Source: a virus (lineage: Duplodnaviria; Caudoviricetes). Taken from it: DNA of 55,442 nt. The position numbers and the translations under genes were made by a program. Location: positions 1-55,442 of IMG/VR virus record IMGVR_UViG_3300009159_000086; one strand, 5' to 3'. A model generated the notes under the pieces. It did not search any database. It was not told the origin of the DNA and saw only the letters and a list, made by a program, of their open reading frames with translations. Of this stretch, positions 9,389 to 55,442 are shown piece by piece (the stretch's first letter is position 1; every line of letters starts with the position of its first letter).

Positions 9389-9411
9389 TTTTTATTTAAG
9401 GAGAAATTCAA

Positions 9412-10815
9412 ATGCAATCTCTGAATGAGCAAATTCAGAAAAAGTGGCAGCCAGTTATGGAACATCCTGATCTGGCTCCAATCAAGGACGTCCACAAGCG
9501 TAGCGTAGTTGCTCAGCTTCTTGAAAATCAGGAAAGAGCTGCTCGTGAAGATGGTTTCGGTTCAGGCGGTTATCGTGCTCCAGGTCTCTTGGGCGAAGCT
9601 GCTCCAACCAACGCAATGGGTGCTTCGTCATCTACTGCTGGTGACGGTTCTATCGACACATTCGACCCAGTGCTTATTTCATTGGTTCGTCGTTCTATGC
9701 CTAACCTAATTGCGTATGATATCTGCGGCGTTCAGCCAATGACTGGTCCAACAGGACTTATCTTCGCAATGCGTTCACGTTATACTGACCAGACTGGCAC
9801 AGAAGCTCTATTCAACGAAGCAAACACAACCTTCTCTGGTTCTGCTGTTGGTAATACTGCTTCACGTCGTGTTGTAGGTAACACCACAACTGGTCGTACT
9901 CAGTCGGGTGCTGATCCAACTGGTCGTACTTCAGCTGCTACAACTGGTTCCTATACCGTTTCAACTGGTATGTCTCGTAGCCAAGCAGAACGTCTAGGTG
10001 ACGGAACTGCTTCTGGTGGACAGTTCCAGGAAATGGCATTCAGCATTGAGAAGGTTGCTGTTACCGCAGTTAGCCGCGCTCTCAAGGCCGAATACACAAT
10101 GGAACTTGCACAGGACTTGAAGGCAATTCATGGTCTTGACGCTGAAACTGAACTTTCAAACATCCTCGCTGCTGAAATCCTTTCGGAAATCAACCGTGAA
10201 GTTGTTCGTACAATCAACTATACCGCTTCTGCCGGCGCTCAGGAAAACGTAACAACTGCTGGTACGTTCAACCTAGACGTTGACTCAAACGGTCGTTGGA
10301 TGGTAGAAAAGTTCAAGGGTCTTCTATTCCAGATCGAACGCGAATCTAACCAGATTGCTAAGGCAACTCGTCGTGGTAAGGGTAACATCATGATCTGCGG
10401 ATCTGACGTTGCTGCTGCTATGCAGATGGCTGGTGTTCTTGATTACACCCCAGCTCTTGCTAACAATCTAAACGTAGACGACACAGGAAATACTTTCGCT
10501 GGTGTGCTTAACGGACGTATCAAGGTCTATATCGACCCATACTTCGCTTCTGCTTCAGGTTCACAGTATTTCACCCTAGGCTATAAGGGCTCTTCAGCGT
10601 TCGACGCTGGTCTGTTCTATTGCCCATACGTTCCTCTACAGATGGTTCGTGCTATTGGTCAGGATTCGTTCCAGCCAAAGATCGGCTTTAAGACACGTTA
10701 CGGAATGGTTGCAAACCCATTCGCAACATCTTCTGCCGACGGTGCTATCGGTGCTCCAAACACCAAGGGTTACAACGTGTACTATCGCTTCGTGCAGGTT
10801 ACAAACCTTATGTAA
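9412..10815 (+). CDS. g23: Major capsid protein gp23
   Basis: DPVLISLVRRSMPNLIAYDICGVQPMTGPTGLIFAMR, SRALKAEYTMELAQDLKAIHGLDAE, FQPKIGFKTRYG. Confidence 0.99.
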   Translation: MQSLNEQIQKKWQPVMEHPDLAPIKDVHKRSVVAQLLENQERAAREDGFGSGGYRAPGLLGEAAPTNAMGASSSTAGDGSIDTFDPVLISLVRRSMPNLIAYDICGVQPMTGPTGLIFAMRSRYTDQTGTEALFNEANTTFSGSAVGNTASRRVVGNTTTGRTQSGADPTGRTSAATTGSYTVSTGMSRSQAERLGDGTASGGQFQEMAFSIEKVAVTAVSRALKAEYTMELAQDLKAIHGLDAETELSNILAAEILSEINREVVRTINYTASAGAQENVTTAGTFNLDVDSNGRWMVEKFKGLLFQIERESNQIAKATRRGKGNIMICGSDVAAAMQMAGVLDYTPALANNLNVDDTGNTFAGVLNGRIKVYIDPYFASASGSQYFTLGYKGSSAFDAGLFYCPYVPLQMVRAIGQDSFQPKIGFKTRYGMVANPFATSSADGAIGAPNTKGYNVYYRFVQVTNLM

Positions 10816-10872
10816 TCAAAACCCCGCTGATTCAAAGGCGGGGCAATATAAGACGGTTTCAAGCCGCAAACT

Positions 10873-10897
10873 GGGGAGCAGAAATGCTCCCCTTTTT
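10873..10897 (+). terminator. Rho-independent terminator after g23
   Basis: GGGGAGCA-GAAA-TGCTCCCC followed by TTTTT. Confidence 0.9.
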
Positions 10898-10901
10898 CTT
10901 T

Positions 10902-10909
10902 ACTAAATA
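10902..10909 (+). promoter_or_regulatory. Late promoter ACTAAATA
   Basis: Late-promoter variant ending 6 nt before the g3 ATG. Confidence 0.65.
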
Positions 10910-10914
10910 GGTAT

Positions 10915-11460
10915 ATGAGCGCAATAGATTCCCATCCAGAAAATATCAATTTTCTTAGTCAAAACAGTTTTCGATTCTCTATCAAGAGATTACCGAATAT
11001 CAACTATTTCTGTCAAGGAGTTGCACTTCCTGCAGTTTCTATTGGTGCTATAGAAAGCCCTACTCCACTTGCTTCTATTCCACGCCCTGGTGATCGTATA
11101 ACATACGATCCATTGATTATTAGATTTCGTGTGGATGAAAATCTTCAGAACTATCTTGAAATTCAAAAGTGGATTGAAGGAATGGGACATCCAGAAGATT
11201 TATCTCAAACAACTAAACTTGCTAGACAAATTCGTAATGAACAAGTAGGATTTCGCCCATTAACTGCTATGGTGAATTTCGTATCAGATGGCGTTCTGTC
11301 AATACTCACTAGCAATAAAAACATGAATAAGAATGTGTTTTTCAGAGACTGTTTCCCAACAAATCTTACCGAACTTTCTTTCGATTCTATGAACACAACT
11401 GTAGAATATCTTGAAGCTTCAGTCACGTTTCGTTACCGTAGATACGAAATCGAAGAGTAA
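10915..11460 (+). CDS. g3: Tail completion/tube terminator gp3
   Basis: NFLS...FRFSIKRLP.INYFCQ, F.VDENLQNYLEIQKW, FRDCFPTNL; synteny after g23. Confidence 0.88.
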   Translation: MSAIDSHPENINFLSQNSFRFSIKRLPNINYFCQGVALPAVSIGAIESPTPLASIPRPGDRITYDPLIIRFRVDENLQNYLEIQKWIEGMGHPEDLSQTTKLARQIRNEQVGFRPLTAMVNFVSDGVLSILTSNKNMNKNVFFRDCFPTNLTELSFDSMNTTVEYLEASVTFRYRRYEIEE

Positions 11461-11515
11461 TATGACCCCTGAGTAACACTCATATTATATCGTATATATC
11501 GTCATTCGTCAAGAC
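11461..11515 (-). promoter_or_regulatory. Antisense sigma70-type promoter element, copy 1
   Basis: Minus strand TTGACG(11512-11507)-N17-TATAAT(11489-11484); near-identical to 42600-42654. Confidence 0.75.
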
Positions 11516-11527
11516 TGTAATTCTATC

Positions 11528-11556
11528 TTGACAATAAGTTCACATTATGGTACTAT
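11528..11556 (+). promoter_or_regulatory. sigma70-type promoter of uvsY
   Basis: TTGACA-N17-TACTAT with TG extension. Confidence 0.8.
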
Positions 11557-11562
11557 TACAAT

Positions 11563-12000
11563 ATGAAACTAGAAGATATCTACGATATGTGGGAAAAAGA
11601 TGCCAAATACGATGACTTGGCATTAGACGTTAATTCCCTAGCAATCTCATCCCTTCACGCCAAATATAATCGTTTGCTGAGCGAAACGCGCAGTCAGCTT
11701 CGTAGTGCGATGATTAAGAAAAAAGCACATTTTAATACTCTACGCGAATATTATCTAGGCAATCTAAATAATCCTGACGACTTAGAACGTATCAATCGTC
11801 CGCCTTTTCTTAATAAGGTATTAAAGAACGAAGTCAATAACTATATCGACGCTGACGGTGAGTTGGTGCGTATCGACGAGCGTATCGCATTGCTTGAAGA
11901 AAAAGTCGAAGTCATTATGGAAATCATGAAATGTATTCACAAAAGAGGCTACGATATTAAGTCTGCTATTGAATGGAGAAAGTTTACGAATGGGTTCTGA
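11563..12000 (+). CDS. uvsY: Recombination mediator UvsY
   Basis: LHAKY, YIDAD, RGYDIKSAIEWRKF.NG; upstream of uvsW. Confidence 0.92.
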   Translation: MKLEDIYDMWEKDAKYDDLALDVNSLAISSLHAKYNRLLSETRSQLRSAMIKKKAHFNTLREYYLGNLNNPDDLERINRPPFLNKVLKNEVNNYIDADGELVRIDERIALLEEKVEVIMEIMKCIHKRGYDIKSAIEWRKFTNGF

Positions 12001-13483
12001 CATCATAATCACTAAAGTGAATGAAGCTTGGATCCGTATCGAAGGTAACGAAGGTATGGTGCGTGAGATTGCTGATTATCTCACGTTCGAAGTGCCTGGA
12101 GCTAAATTTTCTCCTAAGTTTAAGTCGCGTGTGTGGGATGGTAAGATCCGTCTACTTAACTCGCGTAACAACCAAACATATGCTGGACTCGCTAAAGATA
12201 TTCAAAAGTTGTGTCAAGATCTTGATTTCGATTATAGTATCGCGAGCGAGCTCAATGAAACTGAGGAGTTTTCACTTGCTGAAGCTAAAGAATTTACATT
12301 ATCACTGGGTCTCCCGTTCGAAGCCCATGATCATCAATTACGCGCATTCGCTGTTGCGGTTAGGAATAGACGCTGTGTTCTGGTTTCCCCTACTGCTTCT
12401 GGTAAGTCTCTCATTATTTATGCGTTGACGAGGTACTATGATTCCCGTACTCTTATTGTTGTGCCAACTATTTCTTTGGTGCATCAGCTGTATTCTGATT
12501 TTGCCGACTATGGTTATGTATCTGATGAGTTCGTTCACCGAATCTTTGGAGGACAAACTAAACAAACAGATAAACCAATTGTTATCTCAACCTGGCAATC
12601 GGTTTACGAAATGGATAAAGCATTTTTCGAATCGTTTGACGTAATCATCGGAGACGAAGCGCATCTGTTCAAAGCGCAGTCGCTGACGAAAGTCATGACG
12701 AATATGGTCAATACGAAATATCGTTTTGGTCTGACAGGAACGCTAGATGGTAGTCAAGTTAATGAGCTAGTGCTTACAGGACTGTTTGGTCCTGCTGAAA
12801 AGATTATCAGCACAAAAGAACTCATTGATAGTGGCAAACTTGCGACGCTTAAAGTCAAGGTACTTATGCTTAATCATCCTGTCGAAGAATGCAAGAAACT
12901 AGTAGGTGGAGCGTATCAGGATGAAGTTAAGCACATTATTTCTTTTGAACCTCGCAATAAATTCATTCGTAATCTTGCTGTATCTCTCAGGGGGAATACA
13001 CTAATTCTGTATGCCTACGTTGAAACTCATGGAAAAATTTTATATGACATGATCCGTGATAAGGCAGATAACCGCGATGTGTTTTTCGTTCATGGTGGAG
13101 TAGATGGTGAAGAACGTGAAGCTATCCGTGGTATAGTTGAGAAACAAAATGACGCTATCATCGTTGCGTCCTACGGCACATTTAGCACAGGCATAAATAT
13201 CAAGAACCTTCATAACGTGATATTTGCTAGCCCAACTAAAAGCCGCGTGCGCACGATGCAATCTGTAGGTCGTGGTCTTAGAATTTCTGACACGAAAGAT
13301 AGTGTGACTCTATTTGATATAGCTGATAATCTTTCTATTAACAATAAGAAAAATTTCACGTTGAATCATCTTATTGAACGAGTCAAAATGTACAACAGTG
13401 AAGAATTCCCATACGAACTTCACACTATCAAGCTAAGGAGTGACAATGGATCAGGGCGAAGTTTATTTTCTGAAGATGTATAG
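11990..13483 (+). CDS. uvsW: SF2 DNA helicase UvsW
   Basis: WDGKIRL, SPTASGKS, DEAH, GLTGT, QSVGRGLR; ATG 11990 after GGAG. Confidence 0.96.
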   Translation: MGSDIIITKVNEAWIRIEGNEGMVREIADYLTFEVPGAKFSPKFKSRVWDGKIRLLNSRNNQTYAGLAKDIQKLCQDLDFDYSIASELNETEEFSLAEAKEFTLSLGLPFEAHDHQLRAFAVAVRNRRCVLVSPTASGKSLIIYALTRYYDSRTLIVVPTISLVHQLYSDFADYGYVSDEFVHRIFGGQTKQTDKPIVISTWQSVYEMDKAFFESFDVIIGDEAHLFKAQSLTKVMTNMVNTKYRFGLTGTLDGSQVNELVLTGLFGPAEKIISTKELIDSGKLATLKVKVLMLNHPVEECKKLVGGAYQDEVKHIISFEPRNKFIRNLAVSLRGNTLILYAYVETHGKILYDMIRDKADNRDVFFVHGGVDGEEREAIRGIVEKQNDAIIVASYGTFSTGINIKNLHNVIFASPTKSRVRTMQSVGRGLRISDTKDSVTLFDIADNLSINNKKNFTLNHLIERVKMYNSEEFPYELHTIKLRSDNGSGRSLFSEDV

Positions 13484-17174: not shown

Positions 17175-17719
17175 TGGAATTGATTAAAGGTACAGACCCA
17201 AGACTTAATGAAATTTGCCCAGAGTTCAATTTTGAAACTGGAGTGACTCTTGAAAACGGAACTATCATGCAAGCGAAAGAGCTGTATGAACTCCTTCGCG
17301 ATAAGATGATTGAAAATAAGTGCGTGGGTCTTGCAGCTCCTCAGCTTGGTATTATGACTCGCGTGTTCGTTATCGGTAATCCTGGGGATCCAGCAAGTGT
17401 TATTGGTGTGTTTAATCCTATCATCGTAGATTATGAAAATGAAAAGGTTACATACGAAGAAGGTTGTGCTTCATATCCTGGTATGTTCATAAAGATTAAG
17501 AGGTCTCGACGTATCCGTGCTCGTTATCGTGGATGGGATGGAGAAGCAGGAACTACTCCTTATGAAGGATACACCGCTCGCGTATTCCAACATGAGTACG
17601 ACCATATTAACGGGATCACTTATCAACAGAGAGCTAATCGGTTTCATATTGAACAAGCTCAAAATTTCAAGAAAAAGATGGACCGTAGGGTTGCGAATAG
17701 AAAACAAACTGCTGGATGA
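17174..17719 (+). CDS. def: Peptide deformylase
   Basis: VGLAAPQ, EGCAS, QHEYDH (three PDF signature motifs). Confidence 0.93.
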   Translation: MELIKGTDPRLNEICPEFNFETGVTLENGTIMQAKELYELLRDKMIENKCVGLAAPQLGIMTRVFVIGNPGDPASVIGVFNPIIVDYENEKVTYEEGCASYPGMFIKIKRSRRIRARYRGWDGEAGTTPYEGYTARVFQHEYDHINGITYQQRANRFHIEQAQNFKKKMDRRVANRKQTAG

Positions 17720-19368: not shown

Positions 19369-19383
19369 CAGACTGTGTTACAA

Positions 19384-19410
19384 AAAAAGCGCCCCTTTTG
19401 GGCGCTTTTT
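19384..19410. terminator. Bidirectional rho-independent terminator
   Basis: AAAAAGCGCCC-CTTTT-GGGCGCTTTTT. Confidence 0.85.
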
Positions 19411-19423
19411 GCATTTTAGGGCC

Positions 19424-19452
19424 TTGACAATCGGCTAATACGGGTATAGAAT
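19424..19452 (+). promoter_or_regulatory. Early sigma70-type promoter
   Basis: TTGACA-N17-TAGAAT. Confidence 0.85.
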
Positions 19453-19480
19453 GGCCATAGTGATTCAAAGGAGCTAGCTC

Positions 19481-19642
19481 ATGGCCACTACCGTTAAGCC
19501 CACCAACGTCAACTTGAACGCTGCTATTGCGGCGTACCTCGCCAACGCGACCGTGACTATTGCGCCTGCCGCCGTAGCTCAGGGTCTGCGGAAGACGAAA
19601 TATATCGCTCGGGTGACGAAAAAGGTCGCCAAAGGGGCTTGA
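19481..19642 (+). CDS. Small basic early protein (53 aa, not in ORF track)
   Basis: MATTVKPTNVNLNAAIAAYLANATVTIAPAAVAQGLRKTKYIARVTKKVAKGA; SD AAGGAG at 19469-19474; own promoter. Confidence 0.75.
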   Translation: MATTVKPTNVNLNAAIAAYLANATVTIAPAAVAQGLRKTKYIARVTKKVAKGA

Positions 19643-19667
19643 CAATTAGCCCTAACAGCGGTAGAAT
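19639..19667 (+). promoter_or_regulatory. Early sigma70-type promoter
   Basis: TTGACA-N17-TAGAAT, spacer similar to the 19424 promoter. Confidence 0.85.
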
Positions 19668-19700
19668 AGGGTATGATAACCCTTTAACCCAGGAGCCCAA

Positions 19701-22920: not shown

Positions 22921-22944
22921 CAAGAATTGGCGGGGAAAACGCTC

Positions 22945-22973
22945 TTGACATTTCCCCGCCAAACCTATATACT
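22945..22973 (+). promoter_or_regulatory. sigma70-type promoter embedded in an inverted repeat
   Basis: TTGACA-N17-TATACT; 12-bp IR arms at 22927-22938 and 22951-22962. Confidence 0.8.
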
Positions 22974-24733: not shown

Positions 24734-24743
24734 TACTATATAA

Positions 24744-24774
24744 GGGAGGGGAAGTGATTCCCCTCCTATCTTTT
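24744..24774 (+). terminator. Rho-independent terminator
   Basis: GGAGGGGAA-GTGA-TTCCCCTCC then TATCTTTT. Confidence 0.7.
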
Positions 24775-24789
24775 CAATGGAGTTTATAA

Positions 24790-25029
24790 TTGGCTACTGA
24801 TAATCGTGAGCCTTGGGAGCATCTCAAGGGTATTTCTGTCACTGTTCGCAATAATGATGTGAACGGTGCTTTGCGCATTTTGAAAAAGAAAGTTCAGCGT
24901 GAGAACCTTATGCGGGATCTTGCTGAACGTGAACATTACACTAAGCCTTCTATCAAGCGTCGACTCAAGCATCAGCAAGCCGTCATTCGCTGGAAAAAAA
25001 AGCAGGCTGAAACAGCTGAAATGCTCTAA
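24790..25029 (+). CDS. rpsU: Phage-encoded ribosomal protein bS21
   Basis: V.VRNNDVNGALRILKKKVQRENLMRDL.EREHY.KPS.KRR; TTG start after GGAG. Confidence 0.9.
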   Translation: MATDNREPWEHLKGISVTVRNNDVNGALRILKKKVQRENLMRDLAEREHYTKPSIKRRLKHQQAVIRWKKKQAETAEML

Positions 25030-25068
25030 CGTGAGCATATATAATAACATAATCACTTTGGAGTAATA

Positions 25069-39165: not shown

Positions 39166-39185
39166 ACGGCTAAATAATTTCGGTC

Positions 39186-39214
39186 TTGACGAACATGACC
39201 AAATAAAGTATTAT
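39186..39214 (+). promoter_or_regulatory. sigma70-type promoter
   Basis: TTGACG-N17-TATTAT. Confidence 0.55.
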
Positions 39215-39241
39215 AGTCCAATAAGCAAGAAGGGAAACAAA

Positions 39242-39772
39242 ATGACCCCAGGAGCTTTGGAGTACGCAAATAATAAAGCCAAAATCAGTATTACAGGCGG
39301 CAATAAACATAAACGTAAAATCGTCAAAAATGCTGCACGATGGATGCTAGGATATACTCTAGGCCCTCGATTGGCTAATAATATAACACTTAAGATTAAT
39401 ATCACAGAAAAACTTAAAGATTCAAATGTGTATGGTTCTGTGATATGGGATGACGATAATCATCGCCCGCGCGAGTACGACATGGAACTGTGTAATTATC
39501 TAAAAGATAGCATACTATATAGAATACTTGCTCATGAGATCGTTCATATAAGACAATATGCTACTGGTGATCTAAAAGACCTAGCTACCCATGCTAACTA
39601 TTGTAAGTGGAAAAACACTATGGTTCAGTCGGAAGGTCGGGGAAGCGGTTCGTATTTTGATTTACCTTGGGAAATTGAAGCTCGTAAGCAACAAGGTATT
39701 ATTCTAGGTGATTGGAAACGAGCATACGGATATCGTTTTCGACAAAAGACAGGAGAATTATATAATGAATGA
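39242..39772 (+). CDS. Zincin-like metallopeptidase
   Basis: LAHEIVHIRQY and LPWEIEAR. Confidence 0.7.
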   Translation: MTPGALEYANNKAKISITGGNKHKRKIVKNAARWMLGYTLGPRLANNITLKINITEKLKDSNVYGSVIWDDDNHRPREYDMELCNYLKDSILYRILAHEIVHIRQYATGDLKDLATHANYCKWKNTMVQSEGRGSGSYFDLPWEIEARKQQGIILGDWKRAYGYRFRQKTGELYNE

Positions 39773-41131: not shown

Positions 41132-41156
41132 GGAGGTGCTTTTTTGTCATGAGTCA

Positions 41157-41186
41157 GGGAGGAGCAATAACGCTCCTCCCTTTTTT
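41157..41186 (+). terminator. Rho-independent terminator
   Basis: GGGAGGAGC-AATAAC-GCTCCTCCC then TTTTTT. Confidence 0.9.
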
Positions 41187-41190
41187 GTTT

Positions 41191-41198
41191 TATAAATA
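41191..41198 (+). promoter_or_regulatory. Late promoter TATAAATA
   Basis: Exact consensus ending 6 nt before ATG 41204. Confidence 0.8.
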
Positions 41199-41203
41199 TA
41201 TCT

Positions 41204-42604
41204 ATGGCAAATCCTATCAGAATGGCAAGCGGACTGACTTCATGCTATAAGTATGTCACTTATGCAATAGAAGTACTTAAAAAAGACGCACCTATCGCAT
41301 TCATTAATCAAAAGACTGGCGGTGGGGATCCCGTCATGCTTAATCCTACAAAAAAATCACGCGATCATGCTATTAATGTTCTTAAGACTTTTATCGAAGG
41401 TAATAAGCTACGAGCTGACATAACAGATCTAGCAGCATATAAAAATGCTGTCGATTCGATAGAATTAGATACTTCAAAAGAAGCTGACAAATGGTTCCCT
41501 GTTGGCTCTATCATGAAGAGCAGCGAAAAAGTTCCTTTCGGATATCTTGCCGAAGTTCTACTTCAGGCTGCTATTGTTGCTAGATTTGTGGAAGGTAGAA
41601 CTGGAACTAGTATCACTCCTACTCATGTAGCCAAATATCTTAAACAGTTTCTAACAGATAAATCAGATTCTGGTGCATATACTGCGGTTAAAGGTCCAAC
41701 AGATACTAAGAAATCTATAGCCAAAGCGTTTAAGTTTACTGTTCCAAACAAAAAAACTTCTGTGGGTGTAGACACAGTTTATGTATTCTACGTTCTTAAT
41801 GGATCGGCTTTTACATATCTTAATGCTAGAAAATCTGTTCTTGCTTCTAGCACCGACTTAGCACCATATATCGCAGACGCATGTAGATATGTTAACTCTG
41901 GAGCATGTAAAGAACATGCTGAATATTTTTACAACAACGGTCGTAGAGATCGTATAGACATCGTATCGACCAGCATTTCTGGTCAGGATAAAAAAAATCC
42001 TTCGAAAGCTGACATCGTGACTGCATACTATGAAGGTTGGTCTGGTAACGACTCTAGTCCAGGCAAACCAATCGCAATGAAACTTAATCTTTCTGTTAAG
42101 ATTAATCACATTACTCAGGTTGGTCAGGCTTCTGGTCTTCATTCTGAAGCTATGAAAACGTTCGCGAGCGCAGTTGGAATGACATTATCGACAACAACTA
42201 TCAACAAGATTAACAAAATTAATCTAGAACCAATCACGCCACAATCACAAACAGAAGTATATAAGTTGGTTTACAACGAAATGTCAAAAGCTAGTGATAT
42301 CGATAAACTCATAAATGGTATTAGCTATTTCATCTCATTCAACGATAAAACTATCAATGTCGTAGACATTGGTGCTGGACTTAAAGTATATTTCGTTGAA
42401 AACTTACAGATGCTCAAGCGTCAGTTCAAAGGTAAAAAAATGTCAGCTAAGGTTCGTACGACCGGTGGTGGTAATTATGTGCTAGACGTATATCTAGGAG
42501 ATAGTCAAATACTAGAACTAAGTTCACGTAAGACTGGTGGTATTTACCGCAACTTCGTAAATACGGGTGATGCATTAAGAAACATACTAAGCAAACCATT
42601 ATGA
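41204..42604 (+). CDS. Hypothetical late protein, possible PD-(D/E)xK-like nuclease
   Basis: 466 aa basic; GYLAE...KADI...NLSVK spacing resembles E...D...SxK. Confidence 0.45.
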   Translation: MANPIRMASGLTSCYKYVTYAIEVLKKDAPIAFINQKTGGGDPVMLNPTKKSRDHAINVLKTFIEGNKLRADITDLAAYKNAVDSIELDTSKEADKWFPVGSIMKSSEKVPFGYLAEVLLQAAIVARFVEGRTGTSITPTHVAKYLKQFLTDKSDSGAYTAVKGPTDTKKSIAKAFKFTVPNKKTSVGVDTVYVFYVLNGSAFTYLNARKSVLASSTDLAPYIADACRYVNSGACKEHAEYFYNNGRRDRIDIVSTSISGQDKKNPSKADIVTAYYEGWSGNDSSPGKPIAMKLNLSVKINHITQVGQASGLHSEAMKTFASAVGMTLSTTTINKINKINLEPITPQSQTEVYKLVYNEMSKASDIDKLINGISYFISFNDKTINVVDIGAGLKVYFVENLQMLKRQFKGKKMSAKVRTTGGGNYVLDVYLGDSQILELSSRKTGGIYRNFVNTGDALRNILSKPL

Positions 42605-42654
42605 CCCCTTCGTAACACTCATATTATATCATGTTACTTTTGTGTCGTCAAGAC
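42600..42654 (-). promoter_or_regulatory. Antisense sigma70-type promoter element, copy 2
   Basis: Minus strand TTGACG(42651-42646)-N17-TATAAT(42628-42623); near-identical to 11461-11515. Confidence 0.75.
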
Positions 42655-42659
42655 GTTTT

Positions 42660-42667
42660 TATAAATA
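42660..42667 (+). promoter_or_regulatory. Late promoter TATAAATA
   Basis: Exact consensus. Confidence 0.8.
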
Positions 42668-42673
42668 GATAAC

Positions 42674-42726
42674 GCAGAAAGCTAAGGCAGTCCTGCATGT
42701 ATGCGGTTAGGGTACGCCAGTCCCGC
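42674..42726 (+). promoter_or_regulatory. Tandem structured RNA motif in 5' UTR
   Basis: Two hairpins of the same architecture with compensatory changes and shared AGTC internal-loop strand. Confidence 0.55.
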
Positions 42727-42736
42727 TAGGAGTGTG

Positions 42737-43918
42737 ATGAAAGGTTTTAAAAGTTTCGTAGTGGAAACTGCGTTTTCTGCTGAAGAAGACAAGTCCCACT
42801 ACACACATATCGAAGATGAGCTGTATGTTTCAGGCGCTCGTTCTTTCGATAAGATCAATGGTTTTTTTCATGACCTTATCAAAGGCATTCCAGAAACTGT
42901 AAATCAGACTAAGATCGACGGTGCTCCTAGCGTATTCTATGGCTACAACAATGGTAAGTTTTTCGTAGCCACTAAGTCTATCTTCAACAAAGACCCTAAG
43001 ATCAACTACACAGTTGCTGACATCGAAGCTAATCATGGTCATGCGCCTGGGCTCGTAGCTAAACTAAAGCTCGCCCTAGAATATTTTCCCTCAATCACAA
43101 ACAATCGTAACGAAATCTTGCAAGGCGATATGATGTTCGCTAAGTCCGATTTGCGTAAGGTTAAGATTGACGGCGTGCTCCATTGGTTGTTCAAGCCTAA
43201 CACAGTAACAAATGCTGTTCCAGTCGATTCCGACTTGGGTAAGCTTATCGGTCGTGCTACTGTTGGTTTCGCGCCTCACACCAAGTACAATGCAGCTGGC
43301 AGCCGCGTGACCATACAGGCTCGCGATATCAAGAAGAACGCTCAGGTATTCATTATGCCTATCGACGCTCCTATGCTAAGTGGGGTGGGTCATATCCAGG
43401 GATATATCGACGAAATCTCAACTATGCTTTCATCACTTCCTAAGGATGGGCTTGCGTATGTTTCTTCACCGGAAATGAGCAAGTGGTTCCTACAGTATGC
43501 TAACGATGTCATTCGTAACAATACTAATCAGACCTACAACGGATTCGTCAAGTTTATGAATGATAAGTTGCAGAAAGAAGTAGATAAGGTAAAGAGCGAT
43601 AAGGCTAAAGCTGCCAAGCAACAGACGCTCGATGAAACGATTGCTAGTATCAAGCAGAACGCTAGTGGAATTGCTGCTGTGTTCGAAGCTCATACTGAAA
43701 TCGCTGACATGAAAGATAAGATTATTGACGAGCTTGATAAGTATCAACCAATTCGTAGATATTTCGAAAACGAGTTCGGTGGTCTTGTAAGAACGAATCC
43801 TGAGGGGTATGTGTTACTTGGAAAACACGGTACAGCTAAATTAGTCAAGCGTCGCGTGTTCAGTGCGCAGAATTTTGCTGCTGGTGCATACAGAAAAGCA
43901 GGAGCGAAAGATGAATAA
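42737..43918 (+). CDS. Ligase/capping-enzyme-like nucleotidyltransferase (DUF6267-like)
   Basis: KIDG (motif I), ILQGD (III), PEGYVL (IV), KLVK (V); N-terminus MKGFKSFVVE; SD AGGAG. Confidence 0.6.
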   Translation: MKGFKSFVVETAFSAEEDKSHYTHIEDELYVSGARSFDKINGFFHDLIKGIPETVNQTKIDGAPSVFYGYNNGKFFVATKSIFNKDPKINYTVADIEANHGHAPGLVAKLKLALEYFPSITNNRNEILQGDMMFAKSDLRKVKIDGVLHWLFKPNTVTNAVPVDSDLGKLIGRATVGFAPHTKYNAAGSRVTIQARDIKKNAQVFIMPIDAPMLSGVGHIQGYIDEISTMLSSLPKDGLAYVSSPEMSKWFLQYANDVIRNNTNQTYNGFVKFMNDKLQKEVDKVKSDKAKAAKQQTLDETIASIKQNASGIAAVFEAHTEIADMKDKIIDELDKYQPIRRYFENEFGGLVRTNPEGYVLLGKHGTAKLVKRRVFSAQNFAAGAYRKAGAKDE

Positions 43919-46988: not shown

Positions 46989-47001
46989 GGAGAACTGAGT
47001 A

Positions 47002-47421
47002 ATGAATGATGAACTGATTACTATTATTGCTTTTGTTGTTGTTGTTTTTGGTATTGGATGGTATGGTATTGGATGGTATTTTTGGCCTAAGCAAAAAGTA
47101 GAAGAACTAAAGCTAGATCCTGTTCCGGAACCAGCTCCAGCTCCTGTTGTTGAGGAAGTAAAGCCTGCTCCAGTTGCATCACTAGAACCAGTTGTTGCTC
47201 CTGAACCAGCTAAAGAAGAAATCAAGGCTAACATTGACGCAAAGACAGAAGAAGCTTTCGTTAAGGCTATGGAAACTGAAGCTAAGGTAGAAGCTCCAGT
47301 AGCTGCACCAAAAGCTAAGAAACCGGCTGCTAAGAAAGAAAAGACTTTCGTTCCTGCTGCTGCTCCTAAGCCAAAGGCACCAGCTAAAAAAGCACCAGCT
47401 AAGAAGGTAACAAAGAAATAA
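47002..47421 (+). CDS. Membrane-anchored Pro/Glu-rich protein with Lys/Ala-rich tail
   Basis: N-terminal TM, PAPVVEE linker, PAKKAPAKK tail; SD AAGGAG. Confidence 0.7.
   Translation: MNDELITIIAFVVVVFGIGWYGIGWYFWPKQKVEELKLDPVPEPAPAPVVEEVKPAPVASLEPVVAPEPAKEEIKANIDAKTEEAFVKAMETEAKVEAPVAAPKAKKPAAKKEKTFVPAAAPKPKAPAKKAPAKKVTKK
47050..47079 (+). repeat. Perfect 15-bp tandem duplication
   Basis: GGTATTGGATGGTAT x2 (GIGWY x2). Confidence 0.85.
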
Positions 47422-47855
47422 TGGAACTCGTAGAAGCACTCAAGAAAGCTCAAGCGACAACTTTTGCGTTGTATCTTAAAGCGCATAATTTTCACTGGAA
47501 CGTAGAAGGTCCTGATTTCGCGCAGTATCATGAGTTTCTGGGTGATTTCTACGCGGAAGTGTTTGGTGCAGTAGATACTATCGCTGAACTCATTCGTACT
47601 CTGGATGCTTATGCTCCTGGATCACTAACACGATTTAAAGAGCTATCGTCTATCGAAGACGAGCTATCTGTTCCCAAGGCTTTAGTTATGATTGCTAGAC
47701 TCAATGGTGATAATCAGCGTCTTCTTGTTGTACTCAACGAAGCGTATCGTATTGCGGAATCGCAGAGTAAATTCGGTATCTCAAATGCGATTCAGGATCG
47801 TATCACTGCGCATGAAAAGCATGGATGGATGCTTCGTTCATTTACTAAGGAATAA
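47421..47855 (+). CDS. dps: Dps/DNA-binding ferritin-like protein
   Basis: KAHNFHWNVEGPDF.QYH, D.IAE.IR, HEK.GWMLRS. Confidence 0.93.
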   Translation: MELVEALKKAQATTFALYLKAHNFHWNVEGPDFAQYHEFLGDFYAEVFGAVDTIAELIRTLDAYAPGSLTRFKELSSIEDELSVPKALVMIARLNGDNQRLLVVLNEAYRIAESQSKFGISNAIQDRITAHEKHGWMLRSFTKE

Positions 47856-54026: not shown

Positions 54027-54085
54027 CGTATGACGCAATGTCTGCGAACGATAAAGAACGTCTAAAGAAAAGAAACGGAGTACCT

Positions 54086-55442
54086 ATGTCGAATTCTCTA
54101 CCAACCCTTTACCAAGAATTTATTCACTTATCAAGATATTCAAGATTTTTATGGAACGAGGGTCGTAGAGAAAGTTGGCAAGAAACTATAGGTCGTTTCT
54201 TTGATTTCTTTGAAGGTCATCTCAAGGAAAACCATAGCTATGATATCACTGCGTTGCGTGCTGAACTCGAAGACGCAGTACTATCTCAGAAGGTGATGCC
54301 TTCTATGCGTTGCGTCATGACTGCGGGTGAAGCGCTCAAGCGCGAAAACATCGCAGCTTATAACTGCTCGTATGTCGCAGTTAATAGCCCACGTTCATTC
54401 GACGAAATCCTTTATATTCTCATGAACGGAACAGGCGTTGGTTTTTCTGTCGAGTCAAAGGACGTAGAGCAACTTCCTATTGTATCGGAAGATTTTCATA
54501 AGTCCGACACGACTATTGTTGTGGCAGATTCTAAGCTTGGTTGGGCTAAGTCGCTTAAAGAATTGATTGGAATGCTTTATGTTGGGCAGATTCCGCGTTG
54601 GGATTTGAGCAAGATTCGCCCAGCTGGTGCTCCTCTTAAGACGTTCGGTGGTCGTGCTTCCGGACCAGAACCTCTTGATGCGCTATTCAAGTTTTGCATT
54701 GAAGTGTTCAAGAAAGCTGCTGGTCGTCGTCTAAACACATTGGAGTGTCATGACATTGTTTGTAAAATCGCTGACATCGTTGTTGTGGGTGGCGTCCGTC
54801 GTTCCGCTCTTATTAGCCTATCTGATCTTTCGGATGATCGTATGCGCGTGGCAAAATCTGGTCAGTGGTGGATGGATCAGTCGCAGAGGGCACTAGCTAA
54901 TAACTCCGCTATCTATAAGGAAAAGCCAGATATCGGTTTGTTCATGGAAGAGTGGAAGTCACTCTATGAATCTAAGTCGGGCGAGCGTGGTATTTTCAAT
55001 CGCGCGAGCGCGAAGGCTACTGTTATCAAGCATGGTCGTCGTGATCCTAACTATGACTTTGGCACTAATCCTTGCTCCGAGATTATTTTGCGCGATAAGG
55101 AGTTCTGTAATCTGTCAGAAGTTGTTATCCGTGAAACAGACACGATGGAAACTCTTAAGGAAAAGGTCTACTGGGCTACCATTCTTGGTACATGGCAGTC
55201 AACACTAACTGGATTTAAATATCTATCATCATCTTGGAAGCGCAACTGTGAAGAAGAGCGTTTGCTCGGTGTGTCAATGACAGGAATCATGGATAATGAC
55301 CTCACAAATGGAAAACTCTCAGGAATTGAAGGCCGCTTGGCAGAGCTTCGTGAAATTGCAGTCGCCACGAATGCAAAGTTTGCTAAAGAATTGGGTATTC
55401 CGCAATCTGCTGCTGTTACCTGTGTTAAGCCTTCTGGGACTG
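54086..55442 (+). CDS. nrdJ: Class II (adenosylcobalamin-dependent, RTPR-type) ribonucleotide reductase, 3'-truncated; not in ORF track
   Basis: Translated from ATG 54086: YQEFIHLSRYSR, VMPSMR, YNCSY, GTGVGFSVE, GGRASGP, VVGGVRRSA, GTNPCSEI, VKPSGT. Confidence 0.92.
   Translation, partial: MSNSLPTLYQEFIHLSRYSRFLWNEGRRESWQETIGRFFDFFEGHLKENHSYDITALRAELEDAVLSQKVMPSMRCVMTAGEALKRENIAAYNCSYVAVNSPRSFDEILYILMNGTGVGFSVESKDVEQLPIVSEDFHKSDTTIVVADSKLGWAKSLKELIGMLYVGQIPRWDLSKIRPAGAPLKTFGGRASGPEPLDALFKFCIEVFKKAAGRRLNTLECHDIVCKIADIVVVGGVRRSALISLSDLSDDRMRVAKSGQWWMDQSQRALANNSAIYKEKPDIGLFMEEWKSLYESKSGERGIFNRASAKATVIKHGRRDPNYDFGTNPCSEIILRDKEFCNLSEVVIRETDTMETLKEKVYWATILGTWQSTLTGFKYLSSSWKRNCEEERLLGVSMTGIMDNDLTNGKLSGIEGRLAELREIAVATNAKFAKELGIPQSAAVTCVKPSGT

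Follow-up and report, generated by a model that had tools for sequence, protein, structure and literature searches.

The window analyzed here, a stretch of 55,442 nt, is a 55.4-kb fragment from an uncultured freshwater T4-like myovirus and represents ~31% of a genome by the CheckV estimate. Its plus strand carries 70 of the 77 long ORFs in the ORF list; the genes and signals around the two loci considered below are collected in Table 1. Long gaps in the ORF map at 17175 to 17516, 24734 to 25068, 39166 to 39707, 46989 to 47691, and 54027 to 54965 resemble coding sequence. Near-identical phage records were not found by megablast, and the sole blastn match of the window to phage records spans 77 bases. 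The nearest UvsY proteins from cultured phages (cyanophages and one Pelagibacter phage) are at most 38% identical to that of the window, as opposed to 54 contigs in IMG/VR whose UvsY proteins are 74 to 99% identical to it, indicating that the clade is large but uncultured. Two large relatives were available for scanning, one of them (G002) 90% complete and the other designated G001.

A short element, TATGACCCCTnnGTAACACTCATATTATATC, occurs at 11461 to 11491 (copy 1) and at 42600 to 42630 (copy 2), 31,139 bases apart, with 29 of 31 bases identical. In both places, it is followed by 14 unrelated bases and then by TCGTCAAGAC (11506 to 11515 and 42645 to 42654). At up to three mismatches, the repeat matches the window exactly twice, whereas matches in 100 shuffles numbered 0 on average and 0 at most. 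Copy 1 begins 1 base beyond the TAA of the g3-like gene, and copy 2 includes the stop codon of a 466-amino-acid (aa) gene (TGA, 42602 to 42604). Two claims of a preliminary description of this DNA thus hold: the duplicated 29/31-nt repeat has exact coordinates and arose as a pair 0 times by chance in the shuffles, and its copies abut the stop codons of late genes, each of which has a late-type promoter.

Table 1. Genes and signals at the two loci, in order along the window; start sites near 11477 and 42616 were placed by their spacing to the -10 hexamer.
Feature	Position	Strand	Details
Major capsid gene	9412-10815	+	
Terminator hairpin before g3	10873-10892	+	Strong
Late promoter of g3	10903-10909	+	CTAAATA
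g3-like tail completion gene	10915-11460	+	phrog_45; late; proposed target of copy 1; TAA at 11458-11460
Copy 1, initially transcribed leader with G-box	11461..11483	-	GTGTTACTCAGGGGTCATA; predicted start near 11477
Copy 1, core promoter	11484..11512	-	TTGACG 11512-11507, N17, TATAAT 11489-11484
uvsY promoter	11528..11565	+	TTGACA-N17-TACTAT (11528-11556), 6 bases, ATG at 11563
uvsY	11563-12000	+	Followed by a UvsW-type helicase gene
Terminator hairpin before the 466-aa gene	41156-41181	+	Strong
Late promoter of the 466-aa gene	41191-41198	+	TATAAATA
466-aa gene, no assigned function	41204-42604	+	phrog_3560; late; proposed target of copy 2; TGA at 42602-42604
Copy 2, initially transcribed leader with G-box	42600..42622	-	GTGTTACGAAGGGGTCATA; predicted start near 42616
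Copy 2, core promoter	42623..42651	-	TTGACG 42651-42646, N17, TATAAT 42628-42623; TG precedes -10
Late promoter and leader beyond copy 2	42660..42737	+	TATAAATA (42660-42667), two stem-loops, ribosome-binding site AGGAG

Read on the minus strand, both copies have the form gtcTTGACGa-N17-TATAAT, which matches 11 of the 12 consensus positions, and each is the top promoter match within its 5-kb surroundings. The forward promoters of the window share the extended form tcTTGACA-N17-TAnnnT, and the two copies likewise combine a tcTTGACA-like -35, a 17-base spacer, and a TAnnnT -10, the features that define the early sigma70 type. A scan with the pattern ATTATA-N17-YGTCAA, in which one mismatch was allowed, returned 16 forward and 2 backward matches in the window (1 and 1 for the reversed pattern that served as the control), and the only two backward matches are copies 1 and 2. 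The minus-strand TTGACG-N17-TATAAT promoters that had been proposed at these positions are therefore of the same class as the 16 forward promoters. The same scan returned 36 forward and 4 backward matches in G002 and 27 forward and 3 backward matches in G001. The placement of the backward copies in the window and its relatives is nonrandom. The TATAAT hexamer is perfect in all backward copies at the recurring sites, as opposed to one mismatch in most forward promoters, and the promoter of copy 1 is closer to the consensus than the adjoining uvsY promoter. At the second site, an A+T-rich region, TATTTATAAAAAC, lies upstream of the backward -35.

The backward -35 of copy 1 is separated from the uvsY promoter by 15 bases, the back-to-back layout that the preliminary description had pointed out, and this divergent pair is kept in relatives. 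Among the 54 relatives found for the g3|uvsY junction (site 1), 52 have enough flanking sequence, and all 52 retain the pair. Alignment of the 40 distinct sequences (39 relatives and the window) shows the backward promoter in every one of them, with the positions of TTGAC and TATAAT each conserved in 39 to 40 of 40. At the sixth -35 position, 29 sequences have A and 11 have G. The spacer has a constant length of 17 bases and a freely varying sequence, and 13 to 15 bases of varying sequence separate the two -35 hexamers in 40 of 40. The G-box positions hold a G in 28 to 37 of the 40 sequences. At synonymous codons of g3, the same relatives differ by about 0.52 on average, and the combination of constant hexamers, a free spacer, and divergent g3 codons is a signature of selection on a minus-strand sigma70 promoter. 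By their sequence, the two copies belong to the phage's own early class of sigma70-type promoters, and purifying selection on them in relatives is strong. The cassette is absent from the g3|uvsY junctions of the cultured phages SynMITS9220M01, S-CRM01, and HTVC008M, and in SynMITS9220M01, a marine relative, g3 and uvsY overlap.

The forward half of site 1 has a peculiarity of its own. In the window and in all relatives displayed, uvsY has no ribosome-binding site, and its TACTAT -10 is followed after exactly 6 bases by the ATG (11551 to 11565). With the -10 only 6 bases from the start codon and no ribosome-binding site, the uvsY mRNA is predicted to be leaderless and translatable only when made from its own promoter.

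The preliminary description saw no credible gene on the minus strand, and none is conserved among the 25 relatives compared. A minus-strand ORF of at least 25 aa beginning within 70 bases of the start site is missing in 11 of these relatives; in the other 14, the ORFs are short, vary in position, and have a GTG or TTG start in all but one case. The minus-strand ORFs of the window have no PHROG match, and a gene behind the cassette was rejected on both counts. A structured small RNA was rejected as well, since the cassette has no Rfam match and the 3' end of g3 shows no synonymous constraint: synonymous variation in the last 15 codons is 0.49, versus 0.525 for the whole gene, giving no sign of extra constraint on the body of an antisense RNA. 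Among metatranscriptomes, eight runs, all of them assembled contigs, share a few words with positions 9400 to 13400; the contigs assembled from four runs contain the capsid gene only and have zero coverage at 10874 to 11811.

Conservation extends 23 bases beyond the -10 (AGGGGTCA), which had been taken for a 5' tag special to the antisense RNAs. This claim is not supported as put, in that the same 23 bases constitute the leader and ribosome-binding site of a forward version of the cassette in relatives, where they precede a real gene. The forward cassette, present in G001, G002, and other contigs, has the form TTGACAA-N17-TATAAT-...TGTGATGAGGGGTCAG-(2-4 bases)-ATG, with GAGGGGTCAG, about 6 bases upstream of the ATG, as its ribosome-binding region. 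It drives a gene for a conserved basic protein of 130 aa that starts with MAILPIY (L093:1556-1948; also L100, L104, L141, and L145); this gene is absent from the window. In G002, the forward leader and the backward copy at the second site have 15 identical bases (GAGGGGTCAGTATAT) and differ at the would-be ATG. The common leader indicates that the backward copies are kin of a promoter-plus-leader cassette in which the G-rich box was kept and the start codon is absent.

The leader box of the forward cassette is complementary to a stretch of the promoter spacer. A GC-rich inverted repeat, up to 10 bp long (GACCCCTCAT...ATGAGGGGTC in L141), has the -10 in its loop and would mask the ribosome-binding site in transcripts arriving from upstream. 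A role of the box in late mRNAs as a trans-acting antisense to the ribosome-binding site of the forward gene was considered and set aside, the complementarity being 15 bases in G002, 6 to 7 in G001, and not general.

At the second site (site 2), the backward promoter stands next to a late promoter and a leader that together precede a DUF6267 gene, whose true start is likely the ATG at 42738. Three components stay linked in relatives, namely the backward promoter, the late promoter TATAAATA, and a leader containing one or two conserved stem-loops, while the cassette has at least 10 different upstream flanks and the downstream gene changes too. With a different gene upstream in at least 10 relatives, the association of copy 2 is with the promoter and leader beyond it and not with any particular late gene. 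Homologues of the 466-aa gene at five other loci point the same way: the cassette directly adjoins the stop codon in L071 alone and lies ~135 bases farther on in L070, after an extra small ORF; L072 and L073 are without it, and the distant L074 and L075 carry a terminator hairpin in its place. In G002, the DUF6267 gene precedes the cassette and a cytidylyltransferase-like gene follows it, whereas in the window the DUF6267 gene follows, so that site 2 is displaced by one gene between relatives.

The leader after copy 2 contains two similar stem-loops (42674 to 42731), GCAG...CTGC and GCGG...CCGC, whose conserved loops (about AGCTAAGGCAGTCC) recur once or twice before different genes in relatives. 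They have no Rfam match and may serve as a binding site for RNA or protein in late leaders.

A third site (site 3) occurs in relatives between a PAAR-like gene and gp25, beside a late promoter, in a region that falls outside the fragment represented by the window. The gap to the forward promoter is 13 to 15 bases at site 1, 7 to 9 at site 2, and 12 to 13 at site 3. All copies at the three recurring sites abut an upstream stop codon and lie 7 to 15 bases from a forward promoter, and there are only two or three copies of the cassette per genome. Homogenization of the copies within a genome is not general, as orthologous site-2 copies are more alike than the paralogous copies in G002.

A pattern scan of IMG/VR for the complete cassette layout yielded at least 108 distinct instances. 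By context, at least 15 are of the uvsY type, at least 13 of the gp25 type, and at least 13 of the site-2 type (8, plus 5 sorted as "late_other"); forward copies number at least 13 by pattern and about 8 more by eye. The other instances are in further contexts, and several of them, from other phage groups, again adjoin a forward promoter in a back-to-back layout. In such uncultured groups, at loci including L106, L122, L110, and L184, a TGACC box or GC-rich hairpin stands at the gene end and is followed by a backward consensus promoter, with a forward TTGACA-N17-TATAAT promoter back-to-back to it.

The surroundings of the two copies are alike in their late transcription signals. Strong terminator hairpins and late promoters precede both g3 and the 466-aa gene, and a plus-strand terminator between the late gene and the cassette was called at neither copy, nor was a minus-strand terminator downstream of the backward start. 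For both g3 and the 466-aa gene, just 5 bases separate the late promoter from the ATG (10903 to 10917 and 41191 to 41206), and at this distance the two late mRNAs may be nearly leaderless.

The firing, timing, and effect of backward transcription we infer from the promoter anatomy, selection, absence of a gene, placement, and portability that these comparisons establish. The reading that we prefer, tentatively and at a little under an even chance, is that the cassette is an orphan early promoter, as judged from its sequence, that would make noncoding anti-late RNA within a portable divergent-promoter module and would act as a boundary element. Host sigma70 RNA polymerase would fire early from the backward promoter, near 11477 or 42616, and a noncoding RNA would run backwards into the 3' end of the terminator-less upstream late gene and cover that end. 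The other half of the divergent module would be the early uvsY promoter at site 1 and the late promoters at sites 2 and 3. Transcription arriving from the upstream gene would be opposed both by antisense transcription and by polymerase sitting on a very strong promoter. What counts would be transcription itself or polymerase occupancy, not the RNA body, and the cassette would form a boundary between transcription units.

Several observations temper this reading. That the upstream gene at site 2 is variable among relatives argues against silencing of one particular late gene. SynMITS9220M01, the marine relative, manages without the cassette, which counts against a boundary element. Moreover, the conserved G-box is without an explained role in a model of pure interference.

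The constant proximity of the two promoters invites a different reading, in which the orphan would control its forward neighbor, for instance through negative supercoiling on linear DNA or through competition for the shared upstream region. Every backward copy at the three recurring sites is close to a forward promoter, the site-1 gap is held to within 3 lengths (13 to 15 bases in 40 of 40) despite its varying sequence, and the site-2 unit of backward promoter, late promoter, and leader travels as a whole while the flanking genes change. These features fit a coupling of the two promoters; however, the gap differs by site type (13 to 15, 7 to 9, and 12 to 13 bases), leaving no single geometry, and the partner promoters are of two kinds, early and late. 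We regard such control as unlikely.

By analogy with oriG of T4, the backward promoter might instead serve as a replication origin, its orphan transcript being kept as an R-loop that primes leading-strand synthesis. T4 offers the precedent of an orphan promoter antisense to a late gene, and its oriF is the uvsY transcript; in the window, the DNA spanning both promoters and the 5' end of uvsY is among the least stable 1 to 3% of 50-bp windows, and there is a G-run near the 5' end of the backward RNA. The 150 bp downstream of the backward starts, however, have ordinary helix stability (5th to 69th percentile by position), and an A+T-rich unwinding element was not found downstream of either start. 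The unstable zone is located toward uvsY, on the forward side, which makes the forward uvsY promoter a better fit to the T4 origin model. Further points against an origin are that the RNA from the cassette is neither G-rich nor C-rich, that the cumulative GC skew is monotonic across the window, and that site 2 shifts by one gene from relative to relative. An origin of this kind is accordingly improbable in our estimation, and if one lies here, the backward promoter is possibly a helper of the forward uvsY promoter. A wider version of the analogy, in which the backward promoters would be the replication-start signals of the clade, with divergent firing underwinding linear DNA, an R-loop (of the noncoding or the uvsY transcript) priming synthesis, and the neighboring promoter being activated, seems to us no less doubtful.

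Variation at the edges of the cassette also recalls the promoter early stem-loops (PeSLs) of T4-type phages, and the cassette might be a short patch of homology for gene swapping, its promoter activity being secondary. The 10 or more upstream flanks at site 2, the extra small ORF in L070, and the DUF6267 gene that lies after the cassette in the window and before it in G002 fit such a recombination module. But site 1 is between core genes and fixed in position in all relatives, homology alone would not hold 12 promoter positions while the spacer drifts, and the cassette is without a stable stem-loop, making this reading quite unlikely.

A function on the plus strand, whether as a 3' stem-loop or weak terminator of late mRNA or with TGACC as the -35 of a second forward promoter that shares the -10 region in a bidirectional arrangement, is highly unlikely: many site-1 copies do have a 3- to 6-bp inverted repeat just beyond the g3 stop, with compensating arms (TGAGT/ACTCA, GGAT/ATCC, GAATT/AATTC, and CTGTG/CACAG), and TATTATA matches the symmetric TAnnnTA form, but only 6 of 35 hairpins beat 95% of shuffles (minimum free energy, 0 to -6.3 kcal/mol), copy 2 has none, and the invariant backward -35 is left unexplained. 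A hairpin centered on the start site was likewise rejected as weak, with 6 of 35 significant, and TGACC as a forward -35 was rejected as a general feature, a TAnnnT at a spacing of 16 to 18 being present in 3 of 31 site-1 and 14 of 35 site-2 and site-3 instances.

Returning to the preferred reading of a backward early promoter opposing late transcription, a close counterpart is the "anti-late" RNA of T4, that is, early host-polymerase transcripts antisense to late genes. Much of this RNA in T4 arises from early and late genes being on opposite strands. Nearly all long ORFs of the window are on one strand, unlike in T4, so anti-late RNA would need dedicated orphan promoters, and a wrong-way promoter that is kept is probably no mere by-product of how the genes are arranged. 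Short cis-antisense RNAs of the P22 sar and lambda OOP type are defined RNAs with their own terminator and a conserved body; the cassette differs in having no minus-strand terminator, no conserved RNA body, and no Rfam match. To our knowledge, what the orphan oriG promoter does has been established in T4 alone, and the part played by anti-late RNA is, we believe, unsettled. The cassette provides a clean, small, portable test object for antisense early transcription in T4-like phages.

In the T4 record, the oriG primer RNA is annotated as running in the "opposite direction of adjacent gene 34," and oriF is annotated as the uvsY transcript, with uvsY behind the late gene 25. Like the cassette, oriG has an orphan host-polymerase promoter directed against a late gene and a noncoding RNA, and the forward partner of copy 1 has its match in oriF, which is located at the uvsY promoter downstream of a late gene. 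The cassette differs from both in its two or three copies, each tied to a forward promoter. In the account of T4 origins given in PMC3016281, they comprise ~100 bp, with a promoter and an A+T-rich unwinding element as the minimum; their promoters are MotA-dependent middle promoters with the unwinding element downstream, whereas the cassette has a plain consensus sigma70 promoter and no such element. Should the cassette indeed mark origins, replication starts in a widespread, uncultured group of freshwater phages would for the first time be recognizable from sequence.

Among T4-like phages, cyanophage S-PM2 provides a precedent for antisense RNA encoded in cis, cfrI, which is reported to be expressed from the 3' side of psbA (PMC5931967) and, like the proposed backward RNA, starts 3' of a gene. 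It belongs to another locus and sequence, links psbA to a homing endonuclease gene, and, as far as PMC5931967 describes it, is unrepeated and has no forward-promoter partner.

PeSLs are strong sigma70-like promoters with stem-loops that mediate gene shuffling in T4-type phages (PMC2839356, PMC4122927). The cassette resembles them as a short, repeated, strongly conserved sigma70-like promoter at whose edge gene content changes. PeSLs, however, face forward, have a stable GGGG...CCCC terminator stem-loop, and are crowded in hyperplastic regions (PMC2839356, PMC4122927), whereas the cassette faces backward, has no stable stem-loop, numbers two or three per genome, and at site 1 sits between core genes. 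The window also contains forward units of the PeSL type (19369 to 19700 and 22921 to 22973), in which a GC-rich hairpin directly precedes tcTTGACA-N17-TAnnnT; these sit among the small ORFs of the early region, at 19.4 to 23.2 kb.

In the literature searched on antisense early promoters in T4-like phages and cyanophages and on "anti-late RNA," supplements apart, no description of the cassette was found. Its elements are individually familiar, an orphan anti-late promoter from T4 oriG, a cyanophage antisense RNA from cfrI, and repeated promoter cassettes from PeSLs. What is new is an early promoter of consensus type that points backward, lacks a gene, and is fused to a forward promoter, and that is kept at two or three junctions per genome throughout an uncultured freshwater clade.
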